DNA from: Candidatus Saccharimonadota bacterium
Lineage (GTDB): Bacteria; Patescibacteriota; Saccharimonadia; Saccharimonadales; JACDBH01
DNA: 64,000 nt
Reading direction: 5' to 3'
Assembly (NCBI GenBank): GCA_013694995.1
Contig: JACDBH010000004.1
Span: 128,995-192,994, forward strand
This document shows positions 17,378-40,788 of the stretch, in pieces. A program made the translations under genes and the position numbers. Each line of letters opens with the position of its first letter. Positions within the stretch are counted from its first letter, which is position 1. The notes beneath the pieces are model-generated. The model saw only the letters and a list, made by a program, of their open reading frames with translations. It had not been told where the DNA came from and did no database searches.

Positions 17378-17408
17378 TTTATATGGTGGGCGAAAGAGGA
17401 CTTGAACC
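17378..17408 (-). repeat. 31-bp perfect direct repeat of the tRNA-Leu(CAG) 3' end plus trailer
   Basis: TTTATATGGTGGGCGAAAGAGGACTTGAACC is identical at 17378-17408 and 17534-17564. No matching 5' acceptor strand is present, so this copy is a fragment. Confidence 0.85.
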
Positions 17409-17539
17409 CGAAGAAGCCCAGTGGGCTTCTGAGTTCACGCTAGTTAAGCGTCTGTTTAGCATAGTGTTCAAAAGCTGTATATATACATTCTATTGTTTAG
17501 CGCTAAGGTACAATGTCCTATTTGTTCAGCAAGTTTATA

Positions 17540-19681: not shown

Positions 19682-19783
19682 AAGCTTTAAGAAACTATAG
19701 CAGATAAATATGAGGCAGGCGAGACAGGACCTGTCTATGTTCCTAATTCCAATAAGTTACTACTGGTGCGCGAGAGAGGCTTG

Positions 19784-19870
19784 CTCACGTTCCGCGAGCC
19801 CAGAACTTTCATGCGTTGAACCAGTTCAACCCTGGAAGGTTCTCTTGCAAAATGCCACTGGCATTTCTCA
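19784..19870 (-). ncRNA. 87-nt conserved tRNA-fused element, copy A
   Basis: Shares sequence and compensatory hairpin changes with 22505-22591 (+) and 33747-33832 (-). Begins TGAG and ends GGAACGTGAG. No ORF. Confidence 0.5.
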
Positions 19871-19935
19871 CCTATCGGTTCAAGTTCTCCGGCACCAAAA
19901 CAACAAACCGACCTAAAGAGGCCGGATAGTTGTTT

Positions 19936-20019
19936 TGGTGCGCGAGAGAGGACTTGAACCTCCACGCCTTGCGGCACTTGCCCCTCAGACAAGCGTGTCT
20001 ACCATTCCACCACTCGCGC
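19936..20019 (-). tRNA. tRNA-Leu(GAG), type II, CCA encoded
   Basis: Acceptor GCGCGAG/CTCGCGC, anticodon arm CTTGT-CTGAGGG-GCAAG, T arm GGAGG-TTCAAGT-CCTCT. TATAAT about 22 nt upstream. Confidence 0.85.
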
Positions 20020-20298
20020 GTTTGTAAAGCCATAAAATTATAACATCGCAGGGGTATAATAAAAACATAAGAAGAGAGGGTGATGAGGGACTCGCCTCGC
20101 TGTCAAATCAAAATAGGGACTCGCATGTTGATATATAAATAAAACCTTGCAAGCAAGTATTATTTGCATCCCTGATAAATCAGGGTGCCATAGGAAAACA
20201 TGAACAGCCACTGTCTGTTCATACCCGCCGACCCTAGGCGTCGGCAGTACGAGTCCATACACCAAATTAAAAACCGGCCTTACAGCCGGTGCTTAATT

Positions 20299-21901: not shown

Positions 21902-21970
21902 GGTAATAAAGCTTTTCGCGTAATATACAGGGGTCTCGCATCCACTTTTTTAAACCAAGAACTCGTTATG

Positions 21971-22070
21971 TTTGAAAAAGTGAAAGGAGATGACTTGGTG
22001 AAGTTACTAATGATACCGGTCAAACTTGTTTTGCCGGTGACATAGTAACTGCACCATTACACATCGACGC
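21971..22070 (+). promoter_or_regulatory. conserved pre-tRNA leader module, copy 1 (59-nt hairpin 21997-22055)
   Basis: Same architecture as 22388-22479, 40525-40618 and 60010-60101. Helices covary, loop TCAAACTTGTTTTG, and ATTACACATCGACGC abuts the tRNA. Confidence 0.7.
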
Positions 22071-22146
22071 GGCTCTTTAGCTCAGTTGGTAGAGCAGAGG
22101 CCTGAAGAGCCTTGTGTCCCCAGTTCGAGTCTGGGAGGAGCCACCA
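22071..22146 (+). tRNA. tRNA-Phe(GAA), CCA encoded
   Basis: Acceptor GGCTCTT/AGGAGCC, anticodon arm GAGGC-CTGAAGA-GCCTT, T arm CCCAG-TTCGAGT-CTGGG. Confidence 0.85.
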
Positions 22147-22185
22147 AATAAAAACCCCACCCTCCGTGGGGTTTTTATTTGGTGG
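22141..22185 (+). terminator. rho-independent terminator whose 20-bp stem includes the tRNA-Phe CCACCA end
   Basis: CCACCAAATAAAAACCCCAC-CCTCC-GTGGGGTTTTTATTTGGTGG is a perfect inverted repeat with a T-run. Confidence 0.75.
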
Positions 22186-22317
22186 TACTCACAACTAGAA
22201 TATGCCGAAGGCAGTTCGCTAATTGCACGATTAGTGCAATTATATGCAGAACCCTAGAAATCAATCCTTTGAAAAATAGATTTCTAGGAGTGAAGCTATA
22301 TTCTGGGAGGGTATAAC

Positions 22318-22346: not shown

Positions 22347-22387
22347 CCTCCCTGTTCTTATACCAAATTTGCGAGAGAATTCGCGAA

Positions 22388-22479
22388 TTTGAGAGGAGAC
22401 GGCTTGGCGATATTGCCAGGATTGCCGAGCAAACTTGTTTTGGCGGTAATACGGCAAAAACGCCATCACACGTCGACGA
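22388..22479 (+). promoter_or_regulatory. conserved pre-tRNA leader module, copy 2 (59-nt hairpin 22406-22464)
   Basis: TTTGAGAGGAGA..GGCTT, a three-segment hairpin with loop AGCAAACTTGTTTTGG, then ATCACACGTCGACGA abutting tRNA-Gly nt 1. Confidence 0.7.
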
Positions 22480-22504
22480 GCGGGTGTAGCTCAGTTGTTT
22501 AGAG
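22480..22504 (+). pseudogene. 5' fragment (nt 1-25) of tRNA-Gly(GCC), truncated by element copy B
   Basis: GCGGGTGTAGCTCAGTTGTTTAGAG is identical to 22662-22686. A decayed anticodon arm follows at 22592-22613. Confidence 0.7.
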
Positions 22505-22591
22505 TGAGGCCCGCTTGTGGCGGGCCGCAAGGCAAACTTCTGATGAAAACTTGTTTTCAATCATGAAGTTGCGGGGTCGCGGGAACGTGAC
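22505..22591 (+). ncRNA. 87-nt conserved tRNA-fused element, copy B
   Basis: TGAG-GCCCGC/GCGGGC hairpin-CGCAAGG-CTTC...GAAG helix-GTTGCGGGGTCGCGGGAACGTGAC. Homologous to copies A and C. Confidence 0.5.
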
Positions 22592-22661
22592 CTTACTTGC
22601 CAGGCCAAGGAAGCTTTCGTAAGTAACATGATGTACCTTACAATACGAACGAACCAAACAT

Positions 22662-22738
22662 GCGGGTGTAGCTCAGTTGTTTAGAGCGCTTCCTTGCCAA
22701 GGAAGAGGTCGAGAGTTAGAGTCTCTTCACCCGCACCA
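22662..22738 (+). tRNA. tRNA-Gly(GCC), CCA encoded, unusual D loop/T loop
   Basis: Acceptor GCGGGTG/CACCCGC, anticodon arm CTTCC-TTGCCAA-GGAAG, D loop AGTTGTTTA (no GG), T arm GAGAG-TTAGAGT-CTCTT. Confidence 0.85.
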
Positions 22739-24272
22739 AATGGGACTTATCTGTAATGGATAGGTCTTTTTTATTGCCCGCCAATCTGATGAGCTCGCTT
22801 ATTTCGGGGGTGTAAACATTTTTGTTGGCATCCAGCCTAAAACCAGCAGGGAAAACGATTTGTTTAAACCTCAACCTGTTTTCATGTGGTGTCAGGGGGT
22901 CTAGGAACTTTTGGCTCGTGTCACCCACAAAGCCAAAGGCAAACTTTAAGAACCGTTCGTAGTCATCCTCGGCTTTACGAGTGAGCCTGTGCAGTTGGTC
23001 TTCAATGTCTTCAGCTTCCTGTTTTCGTTTAGCTATGTTTGTAAGTATGTCGGACTTAATAGCGGCATTCTCGGGGTCTGTGGCTGCTTCAACCTGTTGG
23101 CTAATACTCTCCTGTAGGCTGGCTAGCTTGTGTCGTAGACGTACAGCCTCTTGCTGGTTCTCGCTCTCACGGCGTTTCCAGACAATATCAAGTGCTTTTG
23201 TGAGGTCAGATACACCAGCATCGGTAATAGGGTTGTTCCTAAGCTGCTTAGTAATTTTATCGTGCATTTCGCCACGGGCTAAGGCGCGCTTACAGGCACG
23301 GCACCTGTACTTTTCGTATATCTTAGGGCTTTTCCCGTTCGTTATGTCCACGCCTACAATGCGGTTGTACTGTTTACCCTCACAAACATCACAGTGAATT
23401 ATGTTGTTGAGGGGGTACTTAGGATTGCCGTTTTTGCGGGGACCAGTTTGGTTTTTCTGCTTCCCTCCAAATATACGCAACAGTTCATGGTGCTGTTCAA
23501 GGGTGATAAGCGGTTCGTGCAGCCCGTTAAGGTTATGGACTTTAACTTGTTTATCAATTGCAACACCGCCAGCGTAATAGATGTCGGTGGCTATCTTACG
23601 AAACTTGTCCATTTTATACAGGGAATGTCCTCTCATGAACTCGCTACTGTTAAGGTTTATCAAGCCCTGGGTTGGCGTGACCCGCTTGGTGACTATATCA
23701 AGCAATACCTTCCTTAGAGCCTGCCCACGCACAGGGTGAGGCTTGTGGATGCCACGTTCATCACCTCGCATGTAGCCTGGCTTAGGGCAAAACGTGTAGC
23801 GACCCTCTTGCAGGGCTTTTGTTTGACCGTTAATTGACTTACGTTGCCGTTCCTCGTTGCTACCTTCAGCAGATAGGTACTTGGTAAACTTGAGTAGCTT
23901 GGCTGCAAGGTCACCTTTGTTTAGCTCAGCGTCTGAGGCGTACCAGACTGTTACCCCTAACTGGCGAAAAGTGACTTCAAAAAACGCAGCTTCATCAATT
24001 GACCGCATAAATCTATCTGGTTCGTCTACAATAATGTACTTAATGCGCTTATCTTTTTTGCAGCGTACTATCATTTGGTTTAGGTCTTTACGGTCTACGT
24101 TCGTACCCCGCTTGCTTGAGACGCTGCCAGACCACCAGCAGTCATCAGGTATCATTACGCCTAATTCATTAGCCGCTTTTAATACAACTTCTCTCTGACG
24201 ATTAAGACTGTTATTCTCCAGTTGCTCGGTACTAGAGACTCTGCACAGTGCTATGGCGAGATGCTTAGGCAT
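22716..24272 (-). CDS. large serine recombinase (integrase type)
   Basis: N-terminal resolvase catalytic block AIALCRVSSTEQ...SL.RQ, a recombinase domain, the Cys cluster CDVC..//..CRAC (zinc ribbon), and a C-terminal coiled coil. 518 aa. Confidence 0.9.
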   Translation of the reverse strand: MPKHLAIALCRVSSTEQLENNSLNRQREVVLKAANELGVMIPDDCWWSGSVSSKRGTNVDRKDLNQMIVRCKKDKRIKYIIVDEPDRFMRSIDEAAFFEVTFRQLGVTVWYASDAELNKGDLAAKLLKFTKYLSAEGSNEERQRKSINGQTKALQEGRYTFCPKPGYMRGDERGIHKPHPVRGQALRKVLLDIVTKRVTPTQGLINLNSSEFMRGHSLYKMDKFRKIATDIYYAGGVAIDKQVKVHNLNGLHEPLITLEQHHELLRIFGGKQKNQTGPRKNGNPKYPLNNIIHCDVCEGKQYNRIVGVDITNGKSPKIYEKYRCRACKRALARGEMHDKITKQLRNNPITDAGVSDLTKALDIVWKRRESENQQEAVRLRHKLASLQESISQQVEAATDPENAAIKSDILTNIAKRKQEAEDIEDQLHRLTRKAEDDYERFLKFAFGFVGDTSQKFLDPLTPHENRLRFKQIVFPAGFRLDANKNVYTPEISELIRLAGNKKDLSITDKSHLVRVKRL

Positions 24273-27993: not shown

Positions 27994-28167
27994 TAACCAT
28001 CCTTTAATTTCATTTAACCACAGTTTCATATAAAAGTCAATAGCTTACGCTTTAAATTACATAAACACTAACATCACAGATACGTGCGTAGCTTTTACAT
28101 TTTATAATGATTGTGTTTTGTTGGCTACTGTGATATCAATATAACTAATAAGGGCGATGTTCAGCAT

Positions 28168-31100
28168 ATGTTTATGAGAAAAAAATCAAAAAAAGTTCAA
28201 ACGCAATTTAAAGAAGAACAAATCAATCCTGGCCTAATCTTGCCTACACCCATAAATCAAAGAAAGTCCCGGTTTAGACTTTATTCACCCTCAGGAAAGG
28301 GCTGGAAATCCAAAGCTTTAATTTTCATGTTAGCTTTTGGAGTTATTGGCGGCTTCTTCTTATATAGAAGCTTTGCCGAAACCCCTTATGGCGACATACT
28401 AACTGGAGCTGACCAATTGGTGTTACGGTACGAACTGCCCTACCCGCATAATTATATTGAGAACGAATTTGAACAAGTTCCGCCACCTGCCACACTTTTA
28501 TATGGAAATGGTCTAATGCTCTGCCACGAATATGAGAAGTCTCGTGCCGACACCCAAACAAGTCCGCTAATGTTTTTAAAGGAGCGTCAGCTTGCGTCGG
28601 GTGAAATTGCGATACTCGTTGATCAAATACGAGCTCTGGGCTTTGATGATATGTTTACCAGGACGCTACCTGATACTATTCCTCCGGCGGTAGACGAAAC
28701 ACCTAGCATTAGCCTGTTTACCACTAGCGGCGAAAGGGAAGTTGTTCTTTATCCTACTGAAAAGTTAGACAAATTTGATGCAATAGCTGCGCTCCTAAGC
28801 AGTGAGTGCAAAAAGGCAAAGACTGATTTTGATCCTGATGAAGTTATCTTGGAAAGTATCAAACTGCCGGATATGGCTGAAAGTACAGTGGCTACCTTGC
28901 CAAATTTGTCAGTATCAGTTGCTGAAAAGGACAACGATATCCAATCCAAAGTCCTTAGTGGCGATGAAGCTAAAAATATTAAAGGCCTAATAGCTAAAGG
29001 GAATAAAATATATAAAGCACCAGACGGCAAAAAAATTAAAGTAAGGGTAATACCGAAAGTACCCGATTACCAAATTTCGAAACGTTTCAGTAAATCTAGC
29101 GGTGGAAACGTGGCCAGTGCAGCTAATATATACAAAGTCCGTTTCGTATATATATATGCTGCTGATCAAGCTCCTCCAACCTCAGATCAACTTAGTGGCT
29201 TTGTTGAGTTGATGAACTCATTGCCGGGCTATTACAGTAACAATGTGAATAAGCCTTTTACATCCCAGGGGCTAACAGTGATGCAAGCAACCAAAAACGT
29301 GGCAGATTATCATGTATGTCCAGATAACAAATGCGTAGATACAAATACAGGTGAGTACATGGGCTCACTGGCTACATATAAAAACTTAGAACTAGATAGT
29401 AATATAAAAAAAGCTGGTATAAGTACGGTGGTAGCATATAACTGGAACTACGGGAGCGAAGTATGTAGGGGCTGGGGAGGCCCTACTCATCCTGAATCTG
29501 AATTTTTTAATTACGTTGGTGTCGAAAATTATGGTGTAGCAGCCTTTGCTGCCGCAAAGTGTATGGGATCTACTTCTCTATATCCTCCCCCGGGTAACCC
29601 AAGTCCAAATCTGAGACACAAGGTGGGCGCGCATGAAGTCGGCCATACTTTTGGGTTAGGTCATGACACAGAACTAACAATGATGCATAGGGGCGGTGTC
29701 ACTATGACTACTTTTGGTTATGGTATTCCACTGAATCCCGTCCAGGCTACCCTACTTCGTGATTTAAGCCTATTCTTTCGTGAAGAAGCTGGGGCGGTGT
29801 ATGAACCTGGACCAGTTACATCAGGTTCAACCTTTGTCTCCATAAACCCAGCACGCCTACTTGAAACACGTCCAAACCTTTCAACTGTCGATGGGAATTT
29901 TAATGGCATAAACAGCCTAGTAGCCGGCTCAACTACAAAATTACAGGTTGGTGGCCGGGCCGGAATGGCCACCAATGCTAGAGCAGCTGCGCTCAATGTT
30001 ACAGCCATTAACCCAATAGCAGCGGGTTATATGGTAGTTTTTCCATGTGATACTGGGCAACCAAAAACTTCAAACGTTAATTATAATCCTGGCATTACAG
30101 TTTCAAATTTTGTTATTTCAAGGTTAGACGGTAACGGACAGGTCTGCATATATACTAATAATGCCATAGATTTGGTAGTAGATATAAATGGGGTGTTTCC
30201 ATCTGGTTCTACTACATCATATACCAACATAAGCCCTGTCCGCATACTAGAAACGCGGGGAGGCCTATTAACTGAAGATGGGCAGTTTAATGGCATTAAC
30301 CGTTTGCCGGCAGGTTCAGTTACCCAGTTAACGGTTAATGGCCGTGTCGGTATACCCTCTAATGCTTCTGCTGTATCCTTAAATGCTACAGTTATAGATC
30401 CAGCTGCCGATGGGTTTATGGTTATTTACCCTTGCAATACCTCTCCGCCTTCTACTTCAAGTATTAACTATATGAAAAGTAGTAATATATCGAATGCTGT
30501 TATATCAAAAGTAGGCAATGGCAGTGTCTGTATCTATACCAATAACGCAATTGATCTGGTAGTTGATATTAATGGTGCGTTTAATGACTACACGTCATTT
30601 AAAAGTGTTCCGCCTAAGCGCTTACTGGAAACTAGGCCTGGGCTTATTACCTATGATGGTATTTCGCAAGGTATTAACAGGCTTGGAGCTGGCTCAATAA
30701 CCGAATTCCAGGTTGCCGGAAGGGCTGAAGTACCCAATGATGCCCTAGCAACGGCATTGAATGTTACAGTTATTAATGCCCAGTACGACGGTTTCATGAC
30801 AGTATATCCTTGTGGTATCCCTTTACCGAAGACTTCCAATGTCAACTTTAACGCCAATACCACCGTTTCTATAGCTGCATTTTCGAAAATAGGGGTAGGT
30901 AGCAGTGCTGGCAAAGTCTGCCTTTATACAAATGTTGCTACGGACGCTGTAGTTGATGTAAATGGCGCGTTTGTGATTTCAGATGGGTCGCAATCCGCTC
31001 TAACCGCGGTTGATCCTGTCGGGGTTTCTCCCGCCCCACCTACTACCGTAGTAGCCTGCCCGTCAGGCTACATAGGCACTTATCCAAACTGTGTCATACC

Positions 31101-33708
31101 AGTTCCTCCAGACACCATTGCAAGAAAGATGTTTACCTGGGTTAGTAACAGTGCAACTGCTCCAAACATTCCGGATTATCCTTACTGTGCTCGCATGGAT
31201 GCTTCTGCCACGGACCCGCATACTTGGGCTGACAACTGGCTATGCAGCCACTTCGATTATGGCTTAAGGCTTTATTTAGCTACTGCACCACTTAATCATG
31301 CCTCCCTGTATCCAACCAGTTCGATTTTCATGGCTGAGCCGGCGCATAAAGATGCAGGATGGGGCGATTCCTCAATGGGGACTACAAGGACTGCTTACTT
31401 CCTGCAATCCGACAGAAATACCCCAAGCGATTTTGTATCAAAATTTACCTGGAGCTATGTAGGTTCTACTGAGATAGCGGCAGGCTTACCTGACGCGCGC
31501 TCCTGTACTGCATGGAGTGAACCATCCGAACCAGCCAGCTCGATGTGGAGCGATAACTACCTATGTGGGCCTTGGTGGTTCCAAACTATACCCCCAACGC
31601 CACCAGTAGTCTCGATAACGGCGCCAGCTAGTAATTCTACCGTGAGCAACATTGTCACCATCAGTGCCAATGCAACTGATGCTAAAGGGATCTCAGTCGT
31701 CCAGTTCAAGTTGGATGGCAATAACCTCGGCGTCGAAGATGCGACGGCACCTTATTCGATAAACTGGGACAGTAAAACGGTGAACAGTGGCAACCATACC
31801 CTCACGGCGGTAGCGCGTAATGTCAGCGGACTTAGCACAACTTCAGCACCCGTTACAGTGAATGTCCAATTACCCCCACCACCACAAAGCACAGCACAGG
31901 GCACAATAACTAGTGCAGACTGCGCAATCATAAGGGGAACTGCCTACGATGCAGACTGGCCAGCAGGTGGAATACGAATTGATATACGAATCGATTCTTC
32001 TTACGCGTCCAATCCCCGTCCACCAGATGGAACCGTTTACACCGACTCAGCCGGTAATTGGTCTTGGTCAATCCCTAATACATCGGCTTATAAAACCAGT
32101 CGAGCTCGTTCTATATATTTTGACATATTGGGCAAAAACTCCTCAGGTGTTGGTGATGCTTGGGTAGTTGGCATTAACTCAGGTAGTCCAACTTACGGCC
32201 CTTGCCAAGTTGCAATGTGTAGTTCTATTCAAGTCAGCATGGATAATGGGGTTACATACGGAAGTAACATTGGTTATAACGGTAGCGCCAATGTCACTGG
32301 TGGTAAGGCATTCAAAGTGAAAATGGCGATGAATAACCTAGCTCCTGTGGTTGGCGGTTCTACATGGAATACAGGATCTGCCAGTCAACAGGTACATGTC
32401 GGAACAGACGGAACAGATACTAGGAATGACTTTAAGGCAATAACTGGTTTAGATTATAGGACATCCGAAAATTCACCGGCTACCGTATACCCTGGCCAAG
32501 TAGGGTACTTCGTATGGGGAATTACTGCTCCGAATGCCAACACAACGCAGTATAAAAACTACACTATGCGTTTCCAGGCTGTGCAGGAATGGGTTGAATG
32601 GTTTAATACGGCTGGTTCTTCGAATACAGGAAACTGCCAGTTTAATATAAACGTCACAGCTCCGATTATAAGCAAATGCTCGGGCGTAACAATTTATAGT
32701 GACTCAAACTTCATAGGCGGTAGTTCAATTTTAAGTGCAGGATACAGTACAACGCGGATTCCTCTTGGTAGTGATACTATCAGCTCAGCACGCATACCAA
32801 AGGGATGTAAATTACGGCTGTTCCTGAATAATGTATATAGCGGAGCAATGCATGATTTAACAAGTGATTGGCCAGGCAGTGTATCTGACCCATGGAATGA
32901 CAAAGCCTCAGCACTGCAAGTCACAGAATCAGATACGATTACGGCAACAACGCCAATAACATGTCCCTCAAATAGCGTGACGCTATTCAAAGATTCCGGT
33001 TACTTAGGGTCATCGAAAATATTAAGTAATGGTAAGTATGATGTGAGGCAGCTTTCAGGTATTGGGGATAATAGGCTAAGCTCAGTTAAAGTACCTCTTG
33101 GCTGTAAGGTTATCCTATATCAAAATAGCGGTTTTGGCGGTGCAACCAAAGTACTAAACGGCGACTGGACAAGCACTGCTGATGATCCATGGAACGATAT
33201 TACTTCTAGTATTGAAGTCAAAAACCGTGCTACGGCTGTGGCTTCGACTGAGATGTTACAGAACCCTGGGTTTGAGCAGGGCAATGTAGTTTGGACAACA
33301 TCTGTTCCGAGTGGTGTAGTGTTCAACTACAATGTGTTATCTACAGCCGGACAAGCAAAAGAAGGAACTAAGTATATGGAAGCTAACTCTACACCATATG
33401 GAGCATCGCTATATCAGGTCGTCACAGCAAATCAAGAGCCAGGTTCTACATATAGATGGTCGGCTTGGGTAAGGTCGCCATCTTGTACTCCCGTAAATGG
33501 ACATGTTACTCTTTGGAGTGTGTGGGCAACAGTCACTAATTCCTACACCGGCTTCACAGCTGATTGTACTTGGCGCCAAATAACGACCACCTTCACTGCA
33601 ACTAATACCGGGGACACACAGTTCCTGCCATATATAACGTTACTTACGGGAGGCGTAAATCTGGATATTGATTCAGCTAGCTTGGTTAAAATTAATTACG
33701 TAGAGTAA
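28168..33708 (+). CDS. giant membrane-anchored surface protein: metzincin-motif protease region, 3x ~115-aa repeats, Ig-like, beta/gamma-crystallin-like x2, CBM-like C-terminus
   Basis: Start MFMRKKSKK matches the paralog. TM segment ALIFMLAFGVIGGFFLY. HEVGHTFGLGHD at 29632-29667 followed by MMH. Repeats run LETRP...LNVT...YPC...TSN.N...D.VVD.NGAF. C-terminal NPGFEQG..W block. Confidence 0.75.
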   Translation: MFMRKKSKKVQTQFKEEQINPGLILPTPINQRKSRFRLYSPSGKGWKSKALIFMLAFGVIGGFFLYRSFAETPYGDILTGADQLVLRYELPYPHNYIENEFEQVPPPATLLYGNGLMLCHEYEKSRADTQTSPLMFLKERQLASGEIAILVDQIRALGFDDMFTRTLPDTIPPAVDETPSISLFTTSGEREVVLYPTEKLDKFDAIAALLSSECKKAKTDFDPDEVILESIKLPDMAESTVATLPNLSVSVAEKDNDIQSKVLSGDEAKNIKGLIAKGNKIYKAPDGKKIKVRVIPKVPDYQISKRFSKSSGGNVASAANIYKVRFVYIYAADQAPPTSDQLSGFVELMNSLPGYYSNNVNKPFTSQGLTVMQATKNVADYHVCPDNKCVDTNTGEYMGSLATYKNLELDSNIKKAGISTVVAYNWNYGSEVCRGWGGPTHPESEFFNYVGVENYGVAAFAAAKCMGSTSLYPPPGNPSPNLRHKVGAHEVGHTFGLGHDTELTMMHRGGVTMTTFGYGIPLNPVQATLLRDLSLFFREEAGAVYEPGPVTSGSTFVSINPARLLETRPNLSTVDGNFNGINSLVAGSTTKLQVGGRAGMATNARAAALNVTAINPIAAGYMVVFPCDTGQPKTSNVNYNPGITVSNFVISRLDGNGQVCIYTNNAIDLVVDINGVFPSGSTTSYTNISPVRILETRGGLLTEDGQFNGINRLPAGSVTQLTVNGRVGIPSNASAVSLNATVIDPAADGFMVIYPCNTSPPSTSSINYMKSSNISNAVISKVGNGSVCIYTNNAIDLVVDINGAFNDYTSFKSVPPKRLLETRPGLITYDGISQGINRLGAGSITEFQVAGRAEVPNDALATALNVTVINAQYDGFMTVYPCGIPLPKTSNVNFNANTTVSIAAFSKIGVGSSAGKVCLYTNVATDAVVDVNGAFVISDGSQSALTAVDPVGVSPAPPTTVVACPSGYIGTYPNCVIPVPPDTIARKMFTWVSNSATAPNIPDYPYCARMDASATDPHTWADNWLCSHFDYGLRLYLATAPLNHASLYPTSSIFMAEPAHKDAGWGDSSMGTTRTAYFLQSDRNTPSDFVSKFTWSYVGSTEIAAGLPDARSCTAWSEPSEPASSMWSDNYLCGPWWFQTIPPTPPVVSITAPASNSTVSNIVTISANATDAKGISVVQFKLDGNNLGVEDATAPYSINWDSKTVNSGNHTLTAVARNVSGLSTTSAPVTVNVQLPPPPQSTAQGTITSADCAIIRGTAYDADWPAGGIRIDIRIDSSYASNPRPPDGTVYTDSAGNWSWSIPNTSAYKTSRARSIYFDILGKNSSGVGDAWVVGINSGSPTYGPCQVAMCSSIQVSMDNGVTYGSNIGYNGSANVTGGKAFKVKMAMNNLAPVVGGSTWNTGSASQQVHVGTDGTDTRNDFKAITGLDYRTSENSPATVYPGQVGYFVWGITAPNANTTQYKNYTMRFQAVQEWVEWFNTAGSSNTGNCQFNINVTAPIISKCSGVTIYSDSNFIGGSSILSAGYSTTRIPLGSDTISSARIPKGCKLRLFLNNVYSGAMHDLTSDWPGSVSDPWNDKASALQVTESDTITATTPITCPSNSVTLFKDSGYLGSSKILSNGKYDVRQLSGIGDNRLSSVKVPLGCKVILYQNSGFGGATKVLNGDWTSTADDPWNDITSSIEVKNRATAVASTEMLQNPGFEQGNVVWTTSVPSGVVFNYNVLSTAGQAKEGTKYMEANSTPYGASLYQVVTANQEPGSTYRWSAWVRSPSCTPVNGHVTLWSVWATVTNSYTGFTADCTWRQITTTFTATNTGDTQFLPYITLLTGGVNLDIDSASLVKINYVE

Positions 33709-33724
33709 GACAAGTTTTAATATA

Positions 33725-33886
33725 TGGTGCGGGTTGAAGAGACTCTCCCACGTTCCGCGGGCCCGAAACTTCATCTTTACAGGCTAGTTTGTAAGAGAAG
33801 ATTTCCTTGCGAATTGCCACCGGCAATTCTCACTCTCGACCTCGTCCTTGGCAAGGATGCGCTCTAAACAACTGAGCTAAACCCGC
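33725..33886 (-). tRNA. tRNA-Gly(GCC)-like gene interrupted in the T loop by the 86-nt element (intron-like, or a pseudogene)
   Basis: The 54 nt at 33886-33833 match tRNA-Gly through the T-stem 5' strand. The 22 nt at 33746-33725 are AGAGTCTCTTCAACCCGCACCA. TATAAT at 33908-33903. Confidence 0.5.
33747..33832 (-). ncRNA. 86-nt conserved tRNA-fused element, copy C
   Basis: TGAG-AATTGCC/GGCAATT hairpin-CGCAAGG-CTTC...GAAG-GTTTCGGGCCCGCGGAACGTGGG. Homologous to copies A and B. Confidence 0.5.
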
Positions 33887-33922
33887 ATACTAACAGATTG
33901 AGATTATAGCGGAATTTGGGAT

Positions 33923-34501
33923 TTATACCTGACTAGGACGACGAGAACGTAAATGCATTACACCACCTAGAGCAACTAGAGCAGTTGCAAATAGTATTTC
34001 TGTGCCTATGATTTCACCTGTACCTGTAACGGGTAATGAAGTTTCTTTGGGTTTAGAAGCAACCAAGGCTATTGGCGCGATGGTAGTAGCTGGAACAACG
34101 ATTGTAGTTGTTGTGGTATCGGCCGGTGCAGCTTCAGTAGTAGGTGGTACTAGGCAGTTTTCTGGTAACTGAATATTGACATATCTAATACCGTCTGCAC
34201 AGAGAGTAGTATCAGGAGGCACTGGAGGTATACCAGTATCTACAATGACCACAGTCGTGGTAGTTGATTCTACTCCACAATCAGTAGGTAGTGGGTCACC
34301 AATAGGAATTATGGTGCCGTCCATGCAATATGTATCTCCCACAACTACCCCTGTATTCGTAGTAGGGATACTTTCGGGAGTGGTAGAGACTGGATCGGTT
34401 GGAGGAACTACATCAATAGAATGTATCAGTGATTCTAGAGAAATACCGGCACTATGGCTAAAGCTTAATTCGCTACTTGGAAGCTGGTTGAAATTATTCA
34501 T
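33923..34501 (-). CDS. small Thr-rich surface protein with LPXTG sorting signal (LPVTG-TM-RSRR), paralog of 27463-27993
   Basis: N-terminus MNNFNQLP. Two Cys-loop modules (YCMDG...PTDC, LCADG...PENC). The C-terminus is SLPVTG followed by a hydrophobic stretch and RSRRPSQV. Confidence 0.65.
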   Translation of the reverse strand: MNNFNQLPSSELSFSHSAGISLESLIHSIDVVPPTDPVSTTPESIPTTNTGVVVGDTYCMDGTIIPIGDPLPTDCGVESTTTTVVIVDTGIPPVPPDTTLCADGIRYVNIQLPENCLVPPTTEAAPADTTTTTIVVPATTIAPIALVASKPKETSLPVTGTGEIIGTEILFATALVALGGVMHLRSRRPSQV

Positions 34502-34667: not shown

Positions 34668-37600
34668 ATGTTCATGAGGAAAAGATCGAAGAAAACTAAA
34701 ATGCCAGTAGATATGATGCAAACAGACGCACCTATAGAAGCGCCAAAAAGTGGACGCCGCCAGAAACATTTAAGCTTATATCCGGTATCAGGGAAAGGCT
34801 GGAAGCAAAAAGCAATCATATTTATGGTCGCTTTTGGAGTTATTGGCGGCTTCTTTATATATAAGAATTACGCATTAAACCAGTATGGTGATATCCCAAC
34901 TGGTGCAGATGAGCTTGTCTTAAACTATGAGCTGCCCGAAGTTTATGAGGTTTTAGAAAATGACTTTAATCAGGGTTCTGCGCCAGCCATGATGTTATAT
35001 GGCAATGGACTTATGCTTTGCGGCAACGAAACATCGGGAAAAAATCCCCAAATTAGCCCGCTTATGTCTATTAAACAGCGTCAGCTATCGCCTCTGGAAG
35101 TCACGACTTTATTTGAAAAAGTACGAGCATTGGGATTTGATAGTTTGCTTACGCGTACTTTGCCGGATTCGCCAGCGCCGCCTTTTGGTGTTACGCCTAG
35201 TCTTAGCTTGTTTACCAGCGAAGGTGAGCGGCGGTTAGTCCTAGCATTTAATGAAAAACCGGCTCAGTTTACTGCTATTACTAATTATTTGGACGATGAA
35301 TGTAAGAAAGCTAAAGAAGAATTCTATCCAGACGATGTAGTACTTGAGAGCATAAAAATTACCGAATCGGCCGAGGCTGGTTTGGAGGCACTTCCTGACA
35401 TACCTGTGCCAAATAGAGACGGTCTTGGTTCTACCAGGCTGCTGGGTGATGAGGCTATAAGGGTTAAAAGCTTAATTTCTAAAGGAAACAAGTTATATAA
35501 AACGTCAGATGGTAAAAAGATCAAAGTACGTCTATTACCAACAATTCCCGAGTACAAGATACCAAAGCTAGCTACTGCTGCCAACAGTAGCAGTAATGTT
35601 GCACACGCGGATAATTTCCGAAAAGTGCGTTTCCTGTATGTAGTTGCAGCCGATGAAGCTGTACCATCTAATGCCCAAACACAGATTAGCGAATTGGCTT
35701 CATCACTGCCGGGATATTACGAAACACAAGTTGGCAAGACATTTACAGTAGAAGGGGCGAGCGTTGTCAAGGGAAGTAAAACTGCTGCACAATACCGTGC
35801 GTGCCCCTATGCAGGTGTTGATTATGCTAAGTGTTTGGTCGATGGTATATTTGAAGATTCACTTGCCTCATATCTACACTTGCAACAAGAATTTAGAGCA
35901 GACAACTTCAGTACGATTATGATGTTAAGCTGGACAACGAGTAGATGTTTAGGAATGGGTGGCCCAACTGATCCTTTGAAAGTGGATAATGCAAATCTTG
36001 ATACGTATGGCATGGGTAGTTTCTCGGCACCTTCATGTCCTTGGGCAGGAACCAAAGAATTGCTCGGTGCTCACGAAGGTGGCCACAGTTTTGGCCTAGA
36101 ACATACCCAGGACCAAACAATTATGTCGAATGCTTACACTCCACCCAAAGGTTATGTATGGCCGCTTAAATCAAGCCAGGCTGCACTGCTAAGTAACTCC
36201 AGTCCATGGTTTAATGGTCCCACTGCGGCTGCTCCCGCTCCTGCAGCAGTCTCATCAGGCTCCACATTTATCTCCATAACTCCTGCCCGCATCCTAGAAA
36301 CACGTCCAAATCTAAGCACTGCTGATAATCAGTACAATAATACTGGCCGTCTCAAGGGAGGTATAGTTAGAGAATTACCAGTAGCTGGGCGTGTTGGTAT
36401 ACCGATCAACGCTCTAGCGGCAGCATTAAATGTTACCGTAGTTAACCCTTCAGGTGATGGCTTCGTAACGGTCTTTCCGTGTGGCACTGGCACACCAGGG
36501 ACATCAAATGTTAATTTCCGCACAGGAAACGTAATTTCTAATATGGTTATATCAAAACTAGGCGGTGGCCAGGTCTGTTTATATAGCAACGTTGATACCG
36601 ATCTGGTGGTTGACGTCAACGGAGCCTTCCCATCTGTTTCTACCGCATTTTATACTAATGTTACCCCATCACGCCTACTTGAGACGCGGCCAGGTAATTC
36701 TACTACCGATGGGCAGTTTAATAACATAGGACGTAGAGCTGGAGGAACAGTCACTGCTGTGCAGGTTAGCGGTCGTTTCGGTATCCCTTCCAATGCTTCC
36801 GCAGTATCTCTAAACGTTACGGTCATTGAGCCTTCAGCAACCGGCTACATGGTTGTATATCCGTGCGGTATACCACCTCCAACTACTTCAAGTGTTAACT
36901 ATACAGGTGGAGGAATTATCTCAAATGCAGTTATTTCGAAACTAGGCAGTGGCCAAGTCTGTATCTATACCAATAACGACACCGATCTAGTGATTGACGT
37001 TAATGGTGCCTTTAATGACGTAACATCGTTTAAGAGTGTCCCGCCAGTCCGCCTACTTGATACCCGCCCTGGTTATAGTACGGTTGACGGTGTTAGTGCA
37101 GGTATAGGGGCACGCACAGGGGGTTCAACTTATGAGCTCACAGTTGCAGGCAGGGGAGGAGTGCCTGCCGATGCAGTGTCGGTTGCGCTCAACGTTACAG
37201 TGATTAACCCTGTGGGAGATGGTTTCTTGACTGTATTCCCATGTGGCATAGGTTTGCCAAATACTTCAAATGTTAACTATAAAGCAGGCACTATTCTCTC
37301 CAATGCCGTGCTGTCTAAACTAGGCAGTAAAAAAGTCTGCATCTATACCAACAATAGTACCGATATAGTTGTAGACGTTAGTGGCGCTTTCACACTTCTG
37401 GATACGCAGCAAAGTGCAACGGCCGTAACCCCGTCGGTTACCTCGCCAACTTTAATCTCTTCCTGCCCAACCGGCTACACCGGAACCTATCCGAACTGTG
37501 TTCTTTCACGATGCCCAACCGGCTACACCGGCACCTACCCGAACTGTGTGCCTCCACCATGCCCAACCGGCTACACCGGCACCTACCCGAACTGTGTGCC

Positions 37601-39056
37601 TCCGGCCTGCCCAACCGGCTACACCGGAACCTATCCGAACTGTGTGCCTCCGGCTACCTTAGCCCCATCCATATGCAGAGGTTTGACTGTCTACAGTGAT
37701 GCTAATTACTTGGGTGCCTCCCAGTCTCTCACTTATACCCAGTACGACTACCCGTTAGCAATAGGCAACGATGCCATCAGCTCAGCCCGTGTTCCAGCTG
37801 GCTGTAAGCTAACCCTTTACCAGAACGGTGCCTACGGCGGAGCTACCCAGGAGCTAACAAGCAATTGGGCTGGCAGCGCTGGCGACCCATGGAATGACAA
37901 GACTTCCAGTGTCAAAGTCGCCACCAATGGTATAGTGTCTACTACTCCGCTAACCTGTAGTAGTGTCGGTATAAGACTATACACCGAAGCTGGTTATACT
38001 GGTACTTCGCAAGCATTCTTTAAAGGCAATTATGACTACGCTCAGCTTGGTACCGTAGGCAATGACAAAGTAAGCTCAGTATATGTTTCGGCTGGCTGTA
38101 AGGTCATCCTTTACCAGCACGGTGCCTTCAGTGGTGCCACTAAAGAACTAACAAGTGGCTGGTATGGGAGTACTACCGACCCATGGAACGACATCACATC
38201 TGGTATTAAGGTAGTTGACCGTGCCACGACCAATTACGGCTCGAATAATGCCTACCGCATGCTAGGTCTTAGATGGAGTTATACTGGCTACATACCTGGC
38301 GGCTACTGTGTCGAAGTCGTTGAACCAAGCGACCCAGTCTGGATGACTTACCGTGATAACTTCCTCTGTAGGACATCAGGTGATTTAAAATGGAGTTACG
38401 CTGGCCCAATTGCCGGTATGTACTGTACGTTAGTCAATGAACCTGCTGAACCGTTAAATTACTACTGGTACGATAACTATATCTGTACAAATAACTCCCA
38501 AGGCACCAGGTTCAGCTCAGCTGGCCCAATTGCCGGTATGGCTTGCACCCTCATGAACGAACCGGGAGACCCTCATTCCTGGAATGATAACTATATCTGC
38601 GAACCGGCACGGGTAACGGCTTCTAGCGTTTATACCCCATATGGCTATTATGTCGCTGCTAATGCGACTGACGATGGGGGGGTAACTAACGAATGGGCCT
38701 CCTATGGCCAAGGAGCTGGCGCATGGGTGCAGATTGGCTGGCCGGGCGTAGTTAACGTCAGTAAAGTAAGCATCAGAGATCGGGTCAACCCACTCGATAA
38801 CATCCAGAGCTTTACACTTACCTTTAGCGACGGTTCAGCCGTGGCTTACGGCATACCGCTACCGAACGACGGGGCTCCACTAGAAATTCAATTCCCAGGC
38901 AAAAACATTATCTGGATGCGTATGACTGTAAACACTTCAATTGGTCCGAATATTGGTGTCGCTGACATTAAGACTTTCCCTTATATTGGATATACAGAGA
39001 CTACAACAAGTACAACAACTACAACAACTACGACACCGCCGCCTACTGCAAATTAA
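34668..39056 (+). CDS. giant membrane-anchored surface protein, paralog of 28168-33708, with discoidin-like C-terminal domain and poly-Thr tail
   Basis: MFMRKRSKK start. TM segment AIIFMVAFGVIGGFFIY. HEGGHSFGLEH at 36072-36104. 3x LETRP...NGAF repeats, 4x CPTGYTGTYPNCV, 2x crystallin-like domains, 3x W/C modules. Confidence 0.75.
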   Translation: MFMRKRSKKTKMPVDMMQTDAPIEAPKSGRRQKHLSLYPVSGKGWKQKAIIFMVAFGVIGGFFIYKNYALNQYGDIPTGADELVLNYELPEVYEVLENDFNQGSAPAMMLYGNGLMLCGNETSGKNPQISPLMSIKQRQLSPLEVTTLFEKVRALGFDSLLTRTLPDSPAPPFGVTPSLSLFTSEGERRLVLAFNEKPAQFTAITNYLDDECKKAKEEFYPDDVVLESIKITESAEAGLEALPDIPVPNRDGLGSTRLLGDEAIRVKSLISKGNKLYKTSDGKKIKVRLLPTIPEYKIPKLATAANSSSNVAHADNFRKVRFLYVVAADEAVPSNAQTQISELASSLPGYYETQVGKTFTVEGASVVKGSKTAAQYRACPYAGVDYAKCLVDGIFEDSLASYLHLQQEFRADNFSTIMMLSWTTSRCLGMGGPTDPLKVDNANLDTYGMGSFSAPSCPWAGTKELLGAHEGGHSFGLEHTQDQTIMSNAYTPPKGYVWPLKSSQAALLSNSSPWFNGPTAAAPAPAAVSSGSTFISITPARILETRPNLSTADNQYNNTGRLKGGIVRELPVAGRVGIPINALAAALNVTVVNPSGDGFVTVFPCGTGTPGTSNVNFRTGNVISNMVISKLGGGQVCLYSNVDTDLVVDVNGAFPSVSTAFYTNVTPSRLLETRPGNSTTDGQFNNIGRRAGGTVTAVQVSGRFGIPSNASAVSLNVTVIEPSATGYMVVYPCGIPPPTTSSVNYTGGGIISNAVISKLGSGQVCIYTNNDTDLVIDVNGAFNDVTSFKSVPPVRLLDTRPGYSTVDGVSAGIGARTGGSTYELTVAGRGGVPADAVSVALNVTVINPVGDGFLTVFPCGIGLPNTSNVNYKAGTILSNAVLSKLGSKKVCIYTNNSTDIVVDVSGAFTLLDTQQSATAVTPSVTSPTLISSCPTGYTGTYPNCVLSRCPTGYTGTYPNCVPPPCPTGYTGTYPNCVPPACPTGYTGTYPNCVPPATLAPSICRGLTVYSDANYLGASQSLTYTQYDYPLAIGNDAISSARVPAGCKLTLYQNGAYGGATQELTSNWAGSAGDPWNDKTSSVKVATNGIVSTTPLTCSSVGIRLYTEAGYTGTSQAFFKGNYDYAQLGTVGNDKVSSVYVSAGCKVILYQHGAFSGATKELTSGWYGSTTDPWNDITSGIKVVDRATTNYGSNNAYRMLGLRWSYTGYIPGGYCVEVVEPSDPVWMTYRDNFLCRTSGDLKWSYAGPIAGMYCTLVNEPAEPLNYYWYDNYICTNNSQGTRFSSAGPIAGMACTLMNEPGDPHSWNDNYICEPARVTASSVYTPYGYYVAANATDDGGVTNEWASYGQGAGAWVQIGWPGVVNVSKVSIRDRVNPLDNIQSFTLTFSDGSAVAYGIPLPNDGAPLEIQFPGKNIIWMRMTVNTSIGPNIGVADIKTFPYIGYTETTTSTTTTTTTTPPPTAN
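37464..37655 (+). repeat. 4 x 48-bp in-frame tandem repeat encoding CPTGYTGTYPNCV(L/P)(S/P)(R/P/A)
   Basis: TGCCCAACCGGCTACACCGG(A/C)ACCTA(T/C)CCGAACTGTGT... repeated head-to-tail four times. Units 1 and 4 share synonymous variants, as do units 2 and 3. Confidence 0.9.
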
Positions 39057-40524: not shown

Positions 40525-40618
40525 TTTAAGAAGAGAGGGCTTGGTGAGGTTGCAAATAATGCCACACAAACTTGTTTTGATGGCAGTATGGCAACATCAC
40601 CATTACACCTTAACGACA
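40525..40618 (+). promoter_or_regulatory. conserved pre-tRNA leader module, copy 3 (59-nt hairpin 40543-40601)
   Basis: TTTAAGAAGAGAGGGCTT, hairpin GGTG..TTGC..TGCCA-loop CACAAACTTGTTTTGA-TGGCA..GCAA..CACC, then ATTACACCTTAACGACA. Confidence 0.7.
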
Positions 40619-40685
40619 GGGCGCCTTGGCCGAGAAGTTAGGCAGCGGTCTGCAAAACCGCGTAGACGGGAGCGTTACCCGTAGG
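40619..40685 (+). pseudogene. orphan 5' two-thirds of a type II tRNA with anticodon loop CTGCAAA (GCA); no T arm or 3' acceptor strand
   Basis: GGGCGCC-TT-GGCCGAGAAGTTAGGC-A-GCGGT-CTGCAAA-ACCGC plus a long variable arm ACGGG/CCCGT. Downstream sequence cannot form a T arm or pair with GGGCGCC. Confidence 0.55.
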
Positions 40686-40788
40686 TGCCTCCAGCTTGAA
40701 TTTGTACCTCGTTTTTATGTAAAGTGCTTTATAGCACTTTACTTTCAAACTCGGACAATTTCTACGTTTTCCATTACACGTCGACGAA

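Follow-up and report, generated by a model that had tools for sequence, protein, structure and literature searches.

What is the small structured sequence that lies among pieces of tRNA genes in the genome of a Candidatus Saccharimonadota bacterium? The question is raised by 64,000 nucleotides of contig JACDBH010000004.1 (positions 128,995 to 192,994, from GenBank assembly GCA_013694995.1). We will call this whole stretch the window. An initial annotation, which was made from the letters of the window, described three copies of an 86-87 nt element: at 19784-19870 on the minus strand, at 22505-22591 on the plus strand, and at 33747-33832 on the minus strand. The sequence and covariance models confirm all three. 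The same annotation stated that no copy has an open reading frame (ORF). This holds in the sense that no copy contains a real gene, but spurious short ORFs do overlap the copies. We will call this three-hairpin element E, with copies 1, 2, and 3 in the order given. We report that E is real and widespread in Saccharibacteria, as a structured element that had not been described before.

The three copies in the window are identical at 71% of the alignment columns, and both the alignment and the fold agree with the helices (P1, P2, and P3) and the conserved blocks that were first described. Even among these three copies, 14 of the 32 base pairs of the fold differ on both sides. A covariance model built from them scores each copy at 88-102 bits, and nothing else in the 64 kb exceeds 14.8 bits. 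To find more copies, we scanned one genome per species for the 3' block of E, AGTTNNGGGNNCGCGG(N)AACGTG, and obtained at least 120 loci. Almost all of these hits are in assemblies of Candidatus Saccharibacteria or Saccharimonadales, and covariance models identified 135 copies of E (109 + 26) in these loci. Because the genome set had been selected on the 3' block, we searched metagenomes with a pattern for the 5' half only. In 100 metagenome loci, the covariance model detected 138 copies, of which almost all are full length. Thus, the further copies that had been anticipated beyond the window exist, and there are over 270 of them in the genomes and metagenomes of Saccharibacteria. (Individual genome and metagenome loci that were searched are given L-numbers below.)

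The fold covaries across both sets, as had been proposed. Standard base pairs make up 96.3% of cells in the genome set and 97.1% in the metagenome set; if the partners are slid as a control, only 26-46% are paired in either set. Changes on both sides were seen at 30/32 pairs in the genome set and at 28/32 pairs in the metagenome set. Although P3 was absent from the pattern used to select the metagenome loci, the 3' half is intact in that set and P3 is 97.9% paired. P3 also contains a conserved G.U pair (104/107 copies from genomes and 105/116 copies from metagenomes). Read on the opposite strand, this pair would become an A.C mismatch, so it is the tRNA-sense strand that folds. Among the unpaired positions, the invariant ones are G2, A3, a GNRA-like turn (GCAA, GAAA, or GAGA) that follows P1, the GGG ahead of P3, and the GAA triloop in P3. 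We found no covariation between loops of E that would indicate a loop-loop contact or a pseudoknot; the scan merely lengthened P2 to its apex. Given these results, we have next to no doubt that E is a real structured family. There are also longer variants of E, with 95-106 nt (L033:140-234, L052:5704-5806, L009:1374-1479, and the outer element of L146). These have a branched domain that contains CCGGAAGCCGG in place of P2, as well as an extra hairpin on P3, and they retain a core of P1, GCAAGG, GGGG, and the base of P3.

E does not belong to any RNA family that we could recognize. When we compared the window and 12 other loci to Rfam 15, with the gathering scores and with permissive E-value cutoffs (10 or 1), no family matched over any copy of E, and this includes the known classes of self-cleaving ribozymes (hammerhead, HDV-like, twister, pistol, hatchet, and hairpin). 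The matches in these sequences were limited to tRNAs, LOOT, lysM-TM7, RNase P, and tmRNA, and were never at E. This bears out the view of the initial annotation, which had recognized no family. Full-text searches of the literature returned no description of E; the nearest return was a report of group I introns that lie within the tRNA genes of Patescibacteria (PMC13011429). Among viral contigs in IMG/VR, there were two chance matches only, and there were none among the phages and plasmids in GenBank, so E is not phage- or plasmid-borne in the collections we searched. A few high-scoring copies of E lie on short contigs that are labelled as other taxa, namely metagenome-assembled genomes of Rhodoglobus (L007), Burkholderiaceae (L037), and Parcubacteria (L022). 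The likeliest explanation is contamination of these bins by Saccharibacteria, which are epibionts of Actinobacteria. The contig L037 also has a 531-nt match to RNase P RNA, which is long against the 367-position model.

Where an intact tRNA of the same kind adjoins E, we could map both flanks of E onto that tRNA and evaluate the junctions. In the genome set, all 71 junctions are preceded by G, and exactly two nucleotides of the tRNA are missing at each of the 71. The missing dinucleotides are TT (48 cases), GT (9), CG (8), GC (3), GA (1), CA (1), and CT (1). In the metagenome set, G precedes E at 54/54 junctions and exactly two nucleotides are missing at 50/54; the four exceptions include pseudo-copies that bear two copies of E. 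Combining the two sets, the G is present at 125/125 junctions and the loss of exactly two nucleotides is seen at 121/125. The initial annotation had stated that E starts after AGAG or TAGG. That is correct for the copies in the window, but the wider rule is that E follows a G and replaces two nucleotides of its target.

The commonest insertion sites are in the T loop, in two registers (G53|TT|C56 and G52|GT|T55). Other sites include the D loop after G18 (tRNAs for Gln, Glu, and Phe), the junction of the D stem and the anticodon stem (24|27 and 22|25; Gly, Lys, Leu, and Pro), and positions 36-39 of the anticodon loop and anticodon stem (Pro and Leu). Overall, we found at least nine insertion positions in about 25 species of tRNA. 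The sites resemble GG|KU|YSR, for which the part of tRNA genes that encodes the T loop is the main natural match. The ends of E (TGAG... and ...GTGAC) are not inverted repeats, and no dinucleotide is shared between the junctions, which read G|UG on the left and AC|C (or GG|U) on the right. At simple insertions (copy 3 and the nested copies described below), there is no target-site duplication, and there is a deletion of two nucleotides instead. We also looked for covariation between E and its flanks, as expected of an internal guide, and found only a weak association of the outer pair of P3 with the T-loop register; nearly identical copies of E are found in both registers. At L055:3588, E lies in an antisense copy of a tRNA, and the junction rule still holds.

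Some copies of E are in hosts other than tRNAs. At L031:5986, L102:4323, L015:1404, and L085:4449, E lies in a T-arm-like hairpin, GGAGGG|E|RAGCCCCTCC, of a conserved RNA or region that is not a tRNA by ARAGORN or Rfam. This host hairpin follows "...GCCGAGCTTTAGGGGGA" and a long hairpin. We considered whether the host might be tmRNA, which was ruled out by ARAGORN -m and by Rfam. Further non-tRNA hosts are at L056, L098, L042:2415, L138, and L198.

Has E moved? At seven or more metagenome loci, a full copy of E is nested within another E. The invariant GGG is always the entry point: the inner E follows its third G, and the outer E picks up again at CGCGGAACGTGAC. If GT is added back to the outer E, then it matches the profile over its full length (1-86) and its score rises by about 10 bits. 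The nested site, GGG|GU|CG, is similar to that of the T loop, GGG|GT|TCG. Such insertions of E into E are without duplication, without fold-back (an inverted copy of the target, see below), and without tRNA flanks. This implies that the elementary event is a plain replacement of two nucleotides. Also, two copies of E can be found in a single pseudo-copy of a tRNA (L009 and L044).

Nearly identical copies of E are found in different tRNA genes, and the members of each such pair come from different assemblies. The E in the T loop of tRNA-Leu(UAG) at L088 and the E in the T loop of tRNA-Pro(CGG) at L099 have 0 differences across 86 positions. There is one difference between the copies at L130 (T loop of an unidentified tRNA) and L141 (T loop of tRNA-Val), and there are two between L035 (tRNA-Gln) and L126 (tRNA-Leu). 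A D-arm site and a T-loop site (L017 and L027) have copies with three differences, as do the T loop of tRNA-Val (L141) and a D-arm site of tRNA-Leu (L191). Because the stems of E tolerate many compensatory variants, near-identity implies recent common descent. We had thought that all copies were old, without young bursts, and we dropped this idea once identical copies surfaced in unrelated contexts. A composite of E within E is also shared by two otherwise unrelated metagenome contigs, in different tRNA contexts (L134:1781-1937 and L210:2482-2637): the inner E is identical (86/86) and the common stretch of 158 nt is 93.7% identical. Relatives differ as well in which tRNAs bear E. For instance, L110 has E at tRNA-Phe and the window does not, and the window has decayed copies at tRNA-Val and tRNA-Leu(CAG). 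Given the nested copies, the identical copies in different tRNA genes, and the decayed copies, E is, or was, very probably mobile, despite having no ORF. Of the readings offered by the initial annotation, a miniature mobile element that targets tRNA genes is the one that fares best: about 125 junctions follow one rule across all of these positions and tRNAs.

Why, then, is E surrounded by fragments of tRNAs? E almost always adjoins an intact tRNA gene, in one of two stereotyped layouts, which we will call modules. In the downstream type (40 evaluable cases), the intact tRNA is followed by its terminator, an antisense copy of the T arm and the 3' end, 6-12 nt of sense flank, E, and the tRNA's 3' fragment in full, to which a second terminator copy is often added. 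E begins 71-116 nt past the tRNA (median 82). In the upstream type (31 evaluable cases), a promoter is followed by the 5' part of the tRNA up to the insertion site, E, 6-16 nt more of the tRNA, a fold-back, an AT-rich spacer with a -10 box, and then the intact tRNA, with a gap of 37-175 nt (median 49) between E and the tRNA. (We initially took TTGAAC in these spacers to be a -35 box; this hexamer turned out to be the antisense T loop, and the genuine signal is a -10 box that precedes the tRNA by 8-17 nt.) At some tRNAs, the two layouts occur together or modules form arrays (L009).

The long flank of E is a copy of the neighboring tRNA (median identity 0.95-0.96), and the short flank is brief and more diverged. 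In 46 of 71 modules, the short-flank side has 10 nt or more that match the target region in antisense, as compared to 3 of 71 shuffled controls. In 33 modules, the antisense match spans the uninterrupted site, including the two "missing" nucleotides, and the best match of the antisense piece is its own tRNA in 25 of 48 modules. These matches to the adjacent tRNA show that everything in a module except for E is locally derived. No fold-back accompanies nested insertions or a second insertion into the same pseudo-copy (L009 and L044), which implies that the fold-back belongs to the junction of the duplication and not to the insertion of E.

On balance, we favor survivorship as the explanation for these truncated duplicates. 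Insertion of E into an essential single-copy tRNA gene would be lethal, so we would observe only those genomes that also hold an intact copy. E would persist only in redundant sequence: a paralog (as for copy 3), another E, or a truncated partial duplicate of a tRNA (as for copies 1 and 2). The partial direct-plus-inverted duplications may arise at the tRNA's own hairpins (the T arm and the terminator), as in template switching during replication; the inverted "empty-site" copies would mark the junctions of these duplications, and they look like products of template switching. The terminator hairpins of these tRNAs are long and bidirectional, and they reach into the tRNA (NCCA pairs with the TGGN that follows), as at 22146-22195, 19936-19892, 20299-20262, and many other loci.

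The copies in the window illustrate both layouts and a simple insertion. Copy 1 (covariance-model hits of 88.4 and 82.1 bits) is in a downstream-type module of tRNA-Leu(GAG), and the order of features that had been described for this locus is correct. The intact tRNA-Leu(GAG) at 19936-20019 (minus strand), which is the functional neighbor of copy 1, is identified by both ARAGORN and Rfam (tRNA, 52.6 bits). It runs into a terminator-like hairpin, GCACCAAAACAAC...GTTGTTTTGGTGC (19941->19892, with a terminator-like site at 19925-19908), whose stem takes in the last 6 nt of the tRNA (GCACCA...TGGTGC). The fold-back, which is an imperfect inverted copy of the T arm and 3' end, we place at 19896->19877. 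Then come GATAGG (19871-19876), which is a short and degenerate sense flank, a remnant of the 5' strand of the T stem that ends in the obligatory G; copy 1 itself; and, at 19764-19783, the displaced 3' fragment of tRNA-Leu(GAG), CAAGCCTCTCTCGCGCACCA (positions 56-76 minus one T; seen in the sequence and with blastn). T54 and T55 are missing at this junction.

Copy 2 (101.5 and 97 bits) is in an upstream-type module, on the plus strand. It follows a 25-nt 5' fragment of tRNA-Gly(GCC) at 22480-22504, which is identical to the intact gene (25/25 in blastn) and whose last base is a G of the D stem. Analysis of the junctions shows that C25-G26 of the tRNA-Gly copy were replaced. After copy 2, at 22592-22613, is a pseudo-anticodon arm of tRNA-Gly with a 5-nt insertion in its loop, which is kept in six orthologous modules. 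The functional neighbor, an intact tRNA-Gly(GCC) at 22662-22738 (ARAGORN and Rfam), begins 70 nt downstream of copy 2, and a scan of the spacer found a TACAAT box ahead of it at 22639-22644.

Copy 3 (102.5 and 94.7 bits) is a simple insertion in the T loop of a second, diverged tRNA-Gly(GCC) gene on the minus strand. This paralog (33886->33725) is full length and has its own promoter, with a TATAAT box at 33903-33908. Its 5' part, up to G53, is at 33833-33886 (94.5% identity over 55 nt in blastn); T54-T55 are replaced by E; and its 3' part, with positions 56-76 including CCA, is at 33725-33746 (sequence and blastn). ARAGORN misses this gene and calls a tRNA-Gly there only once E is swapped for TT.

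The window also contains two decayed modules on the minus strand. The sequence, blastn, and weak covariance-model hits (14.8 and 11.8 bits) indicate a downstream-type module of tRNA-Val at 20078-20223, with a degenerate E (20223-20095) in which P1 is recognizable and the remainder is AT-rich, and a displaced 3' fragment of tRNA-Val (20094-20078). An antisense copy of the T arm lies upstream of it, at about 20240-20256, and the intact counterpart of this module is at L094:2541. Downstream of tRNA-Leu(CAG), a remnant at 17384-17430 consists of a hairpin that resembles P1 (17430-17412) and of 25 nt that directly repeat the tRNA's 3' end (17408-17384; 25/25 identical in blastn).

How might E move? 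Our best explanation, to which we would give an even chance, is that E is a non-autonomous mobile element of Saccharibacteria, of about 86 nt and without an ORF, which moves by an RNA-mediated and target-primed route and whose insertions are filtered by survivorship. The active form of E would be a folded single strand, in the tRNA sense, with three hairpins around an invariant core. E would be co-transcribed from tRNA promoters along with a tRNA fragment, and the folded RNA would be the mobile form. In fact, pseudo-copies retain TATAAT boxes, copy 3 has a promoter, and E is sense-oriented downstream of tRNA promoters. Integration would be target-primed and akin to reverse transcription, with the strands cut 2 nt apart, which would lead to the constant deletion of two nucleotides of the target. 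The mobilizing enzyme would be encoded elsewhere in the genome. Saccharibacteria are naturally competent for transformation (PMC10633639), which could aid the spread of E between species. As for the RNA-mediated and target-primed step in itself, our analysis makes it no more than a tentative proposal. It was suggested by the R2 elements of eukaryotes, with which E shares site-specific insertion, a precise and constant small deletion, and a placement downstream of the promoters of its targets, in the sense orientation. If target-primed elements cut the top strand upstream of the nick in the bottom strand, then precise deletions result; the endonuclease of R2Bm cuts 2 bp apart, and R1 deletes precisely 9 bp and also gives rise to "insertion-site rearrangements" (PMC2718515). 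R2 is transcribed together with the RNA gene that it targets, its function resides in its structured ends, and it has short non-autonomous derivatives (PMC3774820, PMC3414825). It is conceivable, if rather doubtful, that E is the first of a new class of mobile bacterial RNA, either a "minimal" retroelement of about 86 nt or a self-inserting ribozyme. Such an RNA would be transcribed along with tRNA genes, recognize T-loop-like GG|KU|Y sites via its own fold, write itself into DNA, and excise two nucleotides, either by its own catalysis or with a reverse transcriptase or nuclease that is encoded elsewhere in Saccharibacteria. It would be a bacterial analog of R2-type short interspersed elements (SINEs), or a new class of ribozyme.

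Several observations weigh against our best explanation. When the window's 56 main ORFs were scanned with Pfam, we found housekeeping genes (LeuRS, LigA, UvrC, RNase III, TrmD, and others) and no candidate for a reverse transcriptase, transposase, or nuclease, save for one phage-type serine integrase. No gene family recurs beside E: among 609 ORFs from about 90 loci, each family is found at six loci at most. Group II introns are reported to be absent from Patescibacteria (PMC13011429), and E has no poly-A or other hallmark of a retroelement. The insertion into an antisense tRNA copy (L055:3588) indicates that targeting is not simply recognition of a folded tRNA. Also, orthologous copies of E in 3-6 species retain their fold and core while the neutral spacer is saturated, and the mean pairwise identity of E within a genome is no higher than background. 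These last two results imply that many copies are old and yet intact, which is not expected for a purely selfish and decaying element, so there may be some constraint on E or function for E at the level of the host. For instance, the module at tRNA-Leu(GAG) is common to the window, L110, and L115, and these orthologs have compensatory changes. The module at tRNA-Gly is common to six genomes, in which E is 0.80 identical, the pseudo-anticodon hairpin is 0.90 identical, and other spacer is 0.60 identical. And the displaced 3' fragment tracks a compensated change in the acceptor stem of its tRNA. This pattern may in part be due to gene conversion and to incoming variants that replace resident ones.

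In the main rival to our explanation, E would be an RNA module that serves the host, fused to a partial mimic of the neighboring tRNA and made from tRNA promoters. Its folded domain might bind a protein or a ligand, or be a self-processing ribozyme, and might influence, in cis or trans, how the neighboring tRNA is expressed, processed, or surveyed; alternatively, it might process or neutralize the pseudo-fragments, or regulate. The insertion-like junctions would be relics of an ancient origin. Under this hypothesis, we would expect what we see in orthologous modules, where the fold and the unpaired core nucleotides are kept through compensatory change, the pseudo-anticodon hairpin of the tRNA-Gly module is conserved beyond other spacer, and the displaced 3' fragment follows the acceptor stem. 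The architecture of E, with conserved nucleotides at its junctions, variable helices, and longer peripheral variants, is also like that of an aptamer or a ribozyme, and modules are kept in very small genomes. However, the nesting of E within E and the identical copies in unrelated genes of different assemblies indicate recent mobility, and among close relatives some modules have decayed or are missing (those at tRNA-Val, tRNA-Leu(CAG), and tRNA-Phe when the window is compared to L110). Downstream-type modules sit behind strong terminators, the identity of the long flanks can be explained by gene conversion while the short flanks diverge, and no regulated gene or expression platform is evident. 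We consider this rival to be rather unlikely. If E is mobile, then it might instead move as DNA: E would be a transposon end or a miniature element that is mobilized, as single- or double-stranded DNA, by a transposase or recombinase that is encoded elsewhere (such as an HUH/Y1, serine, or IS110-like enzyme), and the hairpins would be structures in single-stranded DNA that this protein recognizes. The structures of attC sites, REP sequences, and the ends of IS200/IS605 elements are conserved despite variation in their sequences. The structure of E is strand-specific, but G.T pairs are tolerated in DNA hairpins too, and the insertion in an antisense tRNA copy fits with targeting of DNA. Serine recombinases cut with a 2-bp stagger, which can be compared to the 2-nt loss at E, and the window encodes a large serine recombinase (22716-24272). 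But E has neither terminal inverted repeats nor a target-site duplication, and it has the 2-nt loss instead. Serine- or IS110-type recombination keeps the core dinucleotide at both junctions, while the ends of E (UG...AC) are not repeated, and insertion of the IS200/IS605 type requires a fixed target of 4-5 nt on the 5' side and loses no bases of the target, while only the G is fixed for E. There is no recurrent transposase near E and no other one in the window, and the recombinase in the window is a phage-type integrase (phrog_95) that is not seen at the other tRNA-Gly modules. We view this route, with an enzyme encoded elsewhere, as unlikely and as a serious rival.

Two other readings, which the initial annotation had also raised, do not hold up well. 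In one, E is the scaffold of a guide RNA (an omega-RNA, reRNA, or bridge RNA), and the tRNA flanks program a nuclease or recombinase that is encoded elsewhere. A constant structured scaffold with variable, locus-specific flanks has this appearance, as do the sense and antisense target-derived segments around a 2-nt "core", which superficially resemble the target-binding loop of a bridge RNA. However, the initial annotation was right that there is no gene like TnpB or IscB in the window: the Pfam scan found no OrfB_IS605, RuvC-like, or HNH protein. Nor is there an IS110-type gene in the window, and no gene of these types recurs beside E in the ~90 loci. No constant adjacent motif extends beyond the G. 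The flanks are sense copies on both sides, as explained by E lying inside copies of tRNAs, and the nested copies lack tRNA flanks entirely. Short flanks and fold-backs decay, and the intact target, which is the neighboring tRNA gene, coexists stably with the supposed guide. We consider a guide scaffold to be very improbable. In the other reading, E is a new kind of tRNA intron that is removed, so that the E-bearing genes yield functional tRNAs. Copy 3, which is a complete and promoter-driven tRNA-Gly broken only by E, could be viewed in this way; Patescibacteria are rich in tRNA introns (PMC13011429); and the conservation of the fold would follow from the need to splice. But a functional intron is unlikely because two nucleotides of the tRNA, usually T54-Psi55, are missing at the junctions, so that exact excision gives no canonical tRNA. 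If we simply deleted E, ARAGORN found no tRNA across the junction; it did so only with TT restored, and in few cases. Also, most of the host copies (about 99%) are truncated and sit next to an intact gene, E falls far short of the size of a group I or group II core (Rfam finds neither), and its three helices leave no bulge-helix-bulge at the junctions. We see hardly any chance that E is an intron, and we return to our preferred explanation, a non-autonomous mobile element.

Other features of the window lie near the copies of E. The serine recombinase at 22716-24272 (minus strand; 518 amino acids; Resolvase in Pfam and the integrase family phrog_95) overlaps, with its 3' end, the final 23 nt of tRNA-Gly(GCC). 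Small ORFs come next, up to about 28100, including a protein with an FtsK-gamma domain and a protein similar to terminase small subunits. The region from 22716 to ~28100 is probably a small integrated element or a satellite at the 3' end of tRNA-Gly. Within this putative element is a LOOT RNA (RF03000; 24695-24813, plus strand; 75.4 bits, which is over the gathering score). Copy 3 is flanked by giant proteins of 1,865 amino acids (28111-33708, plus strand) and 1,462 amino acids (34668-39056, plus strand), with M12-peptidase-like, Big_7, beta/gamma-crystallin, and DUF7402 domains. A short distance upstream of copy 3, a 192-amino-acid ORF (33923-34501, minus strand) ends with an LPVTG sorting signal.

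A second conserved motif, of about 60-100 nt, occurs on the plus strand at 21960-22070, 22380-22479, 40560-40619, 40730-40788, and 60042-60101, where it forms the 5' leader of tRNA-Phe, the tRNA-Gly fragment, tRNA-Cys, tRNA-Leu(UAA), and tRNA-Gln, respectively. It comprises a hairpin, GCCGAG-CAAACTTGTTTTG-GCGG, and then CCATYACACNTCGACGA directly ahead of position 1 of the tRNA. Similar "...CGACGA|tRNA" leaders are found in Saccharibacteria at L006, L045, L063, L191, and L194, and no family in Rfam matches this motif. We had considered the "CAAACTTGTTTTG" hairpins upstream of tRNA-Phe and the Gly fragment to be remnants of P2 of E, and we withdrew this because they are part of the separate leader motif. 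Finally, the tRNA-Gly(GCC) genes of the window (22662-22738 and 33886-33725) and of L019, L026, and L008 have no G18-G19 pair in the D loop (AGTTGTTTA) and no C56 in the T loop (TTAGAGT or TTTGAGT). These features are reminiscent of the non-proteinogenic tRNA-Gly of staphylococci that is used for the cell wall.

E explains the litter of tRNA fragments at the tRNA loci of Saccharibacteria, and it implies that tRNA annotation in these genomes can miss genes as well as over-call them. It also provides a covariance model for a large family of RNAs that has not been annotated. More broadly, it makes an old question testable, namely how selfish insertions manage to persist in those RNA genes of minimal genomes that are essential and single-copy; for E, the answer appears to be partial duplications that are generated locally. 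And a compact site-specific insertion RNA, which looks programmable, would be of interest to genome engineers once its partner enzyme is found.

How does E compare to known systems? Among the closest are non-LTR (long terminal repeat) retrotransposons of the R2/R1 type and their SIDE derivatives. Like E, these insert at one precise site in a conserved gene for a structural RNA and disable the copy that they enter. They are transcribed along with the host gene and have functional structured RNA ends (a ribozyme at the 5' end and a protein-binding fold at the 3' end), and their staggered cleavage yields precise small deletions and rearrangements of the site (PMC2718515, PMC3414825, PMC3774820). 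Unlike E, they are eukaryotic, are kilobases in size or at least several hundred nucleotides, and rely on a reverse transcriptase and endonuclease that are encoded by the element. E is bacterial and just 86 nt, with no poly-A and no known reverse transcriptase, and a target-primed step for E is inferred. If E is indeed mobile, then, to our knowledge, its size would be below that of every known non-autonomous mobile element of bacteria. The group I introns that Patescibacteria carry in their tRNA genes resemble E in being from the same lineage and the same host genes, in lacking ORFs, and in being missed by standard tRNA finders, but they are at least 200 nt, lie in the anticodon loop, and self-splice precisely to restore a functional tRNA (PMC13011429). 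Their conserved P3-P8 catalytic core takes up about 200 nt or more, as against the three simple hairpins of E. E has no signal for RF00028, deletes two nucleotides, and lies mostly in truncated copies of genes. The boundaries differ as well: E is preceded by G and ends in C (or G), whereas group I introns have U at the 5' splice site and a terminal G. In the Thermoproteales, non-canonical tRNA introns have spread between positions and between tRNAs, and, as for E, related inserts are found at numerous positions in numerous tRNAs, the D and T loops among them. These archaeal introns are short, are bounded by bulge-helix-bulge motifs, and are cut out by the splicing endonuclease to leave the exons intact, and none of this is seen for E.

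Among bacterial repeats, miniature inverted-repeat transposable elements (MITEs), REP/BIME sequences, and Rickettsia palindromic elements are small, ORF-less, multi-copy, and structured, as E is, and some of them lie in RNA genes. But MITEs have terminal inverted repeats and target-site duplications, and REPs are simple palindromes that are moved by RAYT transposases, while E has three distinct helices, an invariant unpaired core, no inverted repeats or duplication, and a 2-nt deletion of the target. The omega-RNAs or reRNAs of IS200/IS605 elements (with TnpB or IscB) and the bridge RNAs of IS110 elements also place a structured non-coding scaffold beside target-derived sequence. These are encoded in or beside the gene for the nuclease or recombinase, with a fixed adjacent motif or a conserved core dinucleotide, and we found neither for E. 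Lastly, integrative elements that target tRNA genes leave a direct repeat of the 3' end of the tRNA (attL/attR) and rebuild the gene with its own terminator, as in downstream-type modules. In contrast, the "island" in a module of E is about 170 nt with no integrase or other gene inside, upstream-type modules duplicate the 5' part of the tRNA, E lies exactly at the junction with two nucleotides lost, and nested copies of E have no repeat. The only integrase in the window (22716-24272) belongs to the separate element beside tRNA-Gly. Thus, the insertion signature of E fits no known class of intron, transposon, or guide RNA. If E is mobile, then replacement of two nucleotides after a G, by an element with no repeats and no ORF, points to an enzymatic or ribozyme mechanism that has yet to be described.

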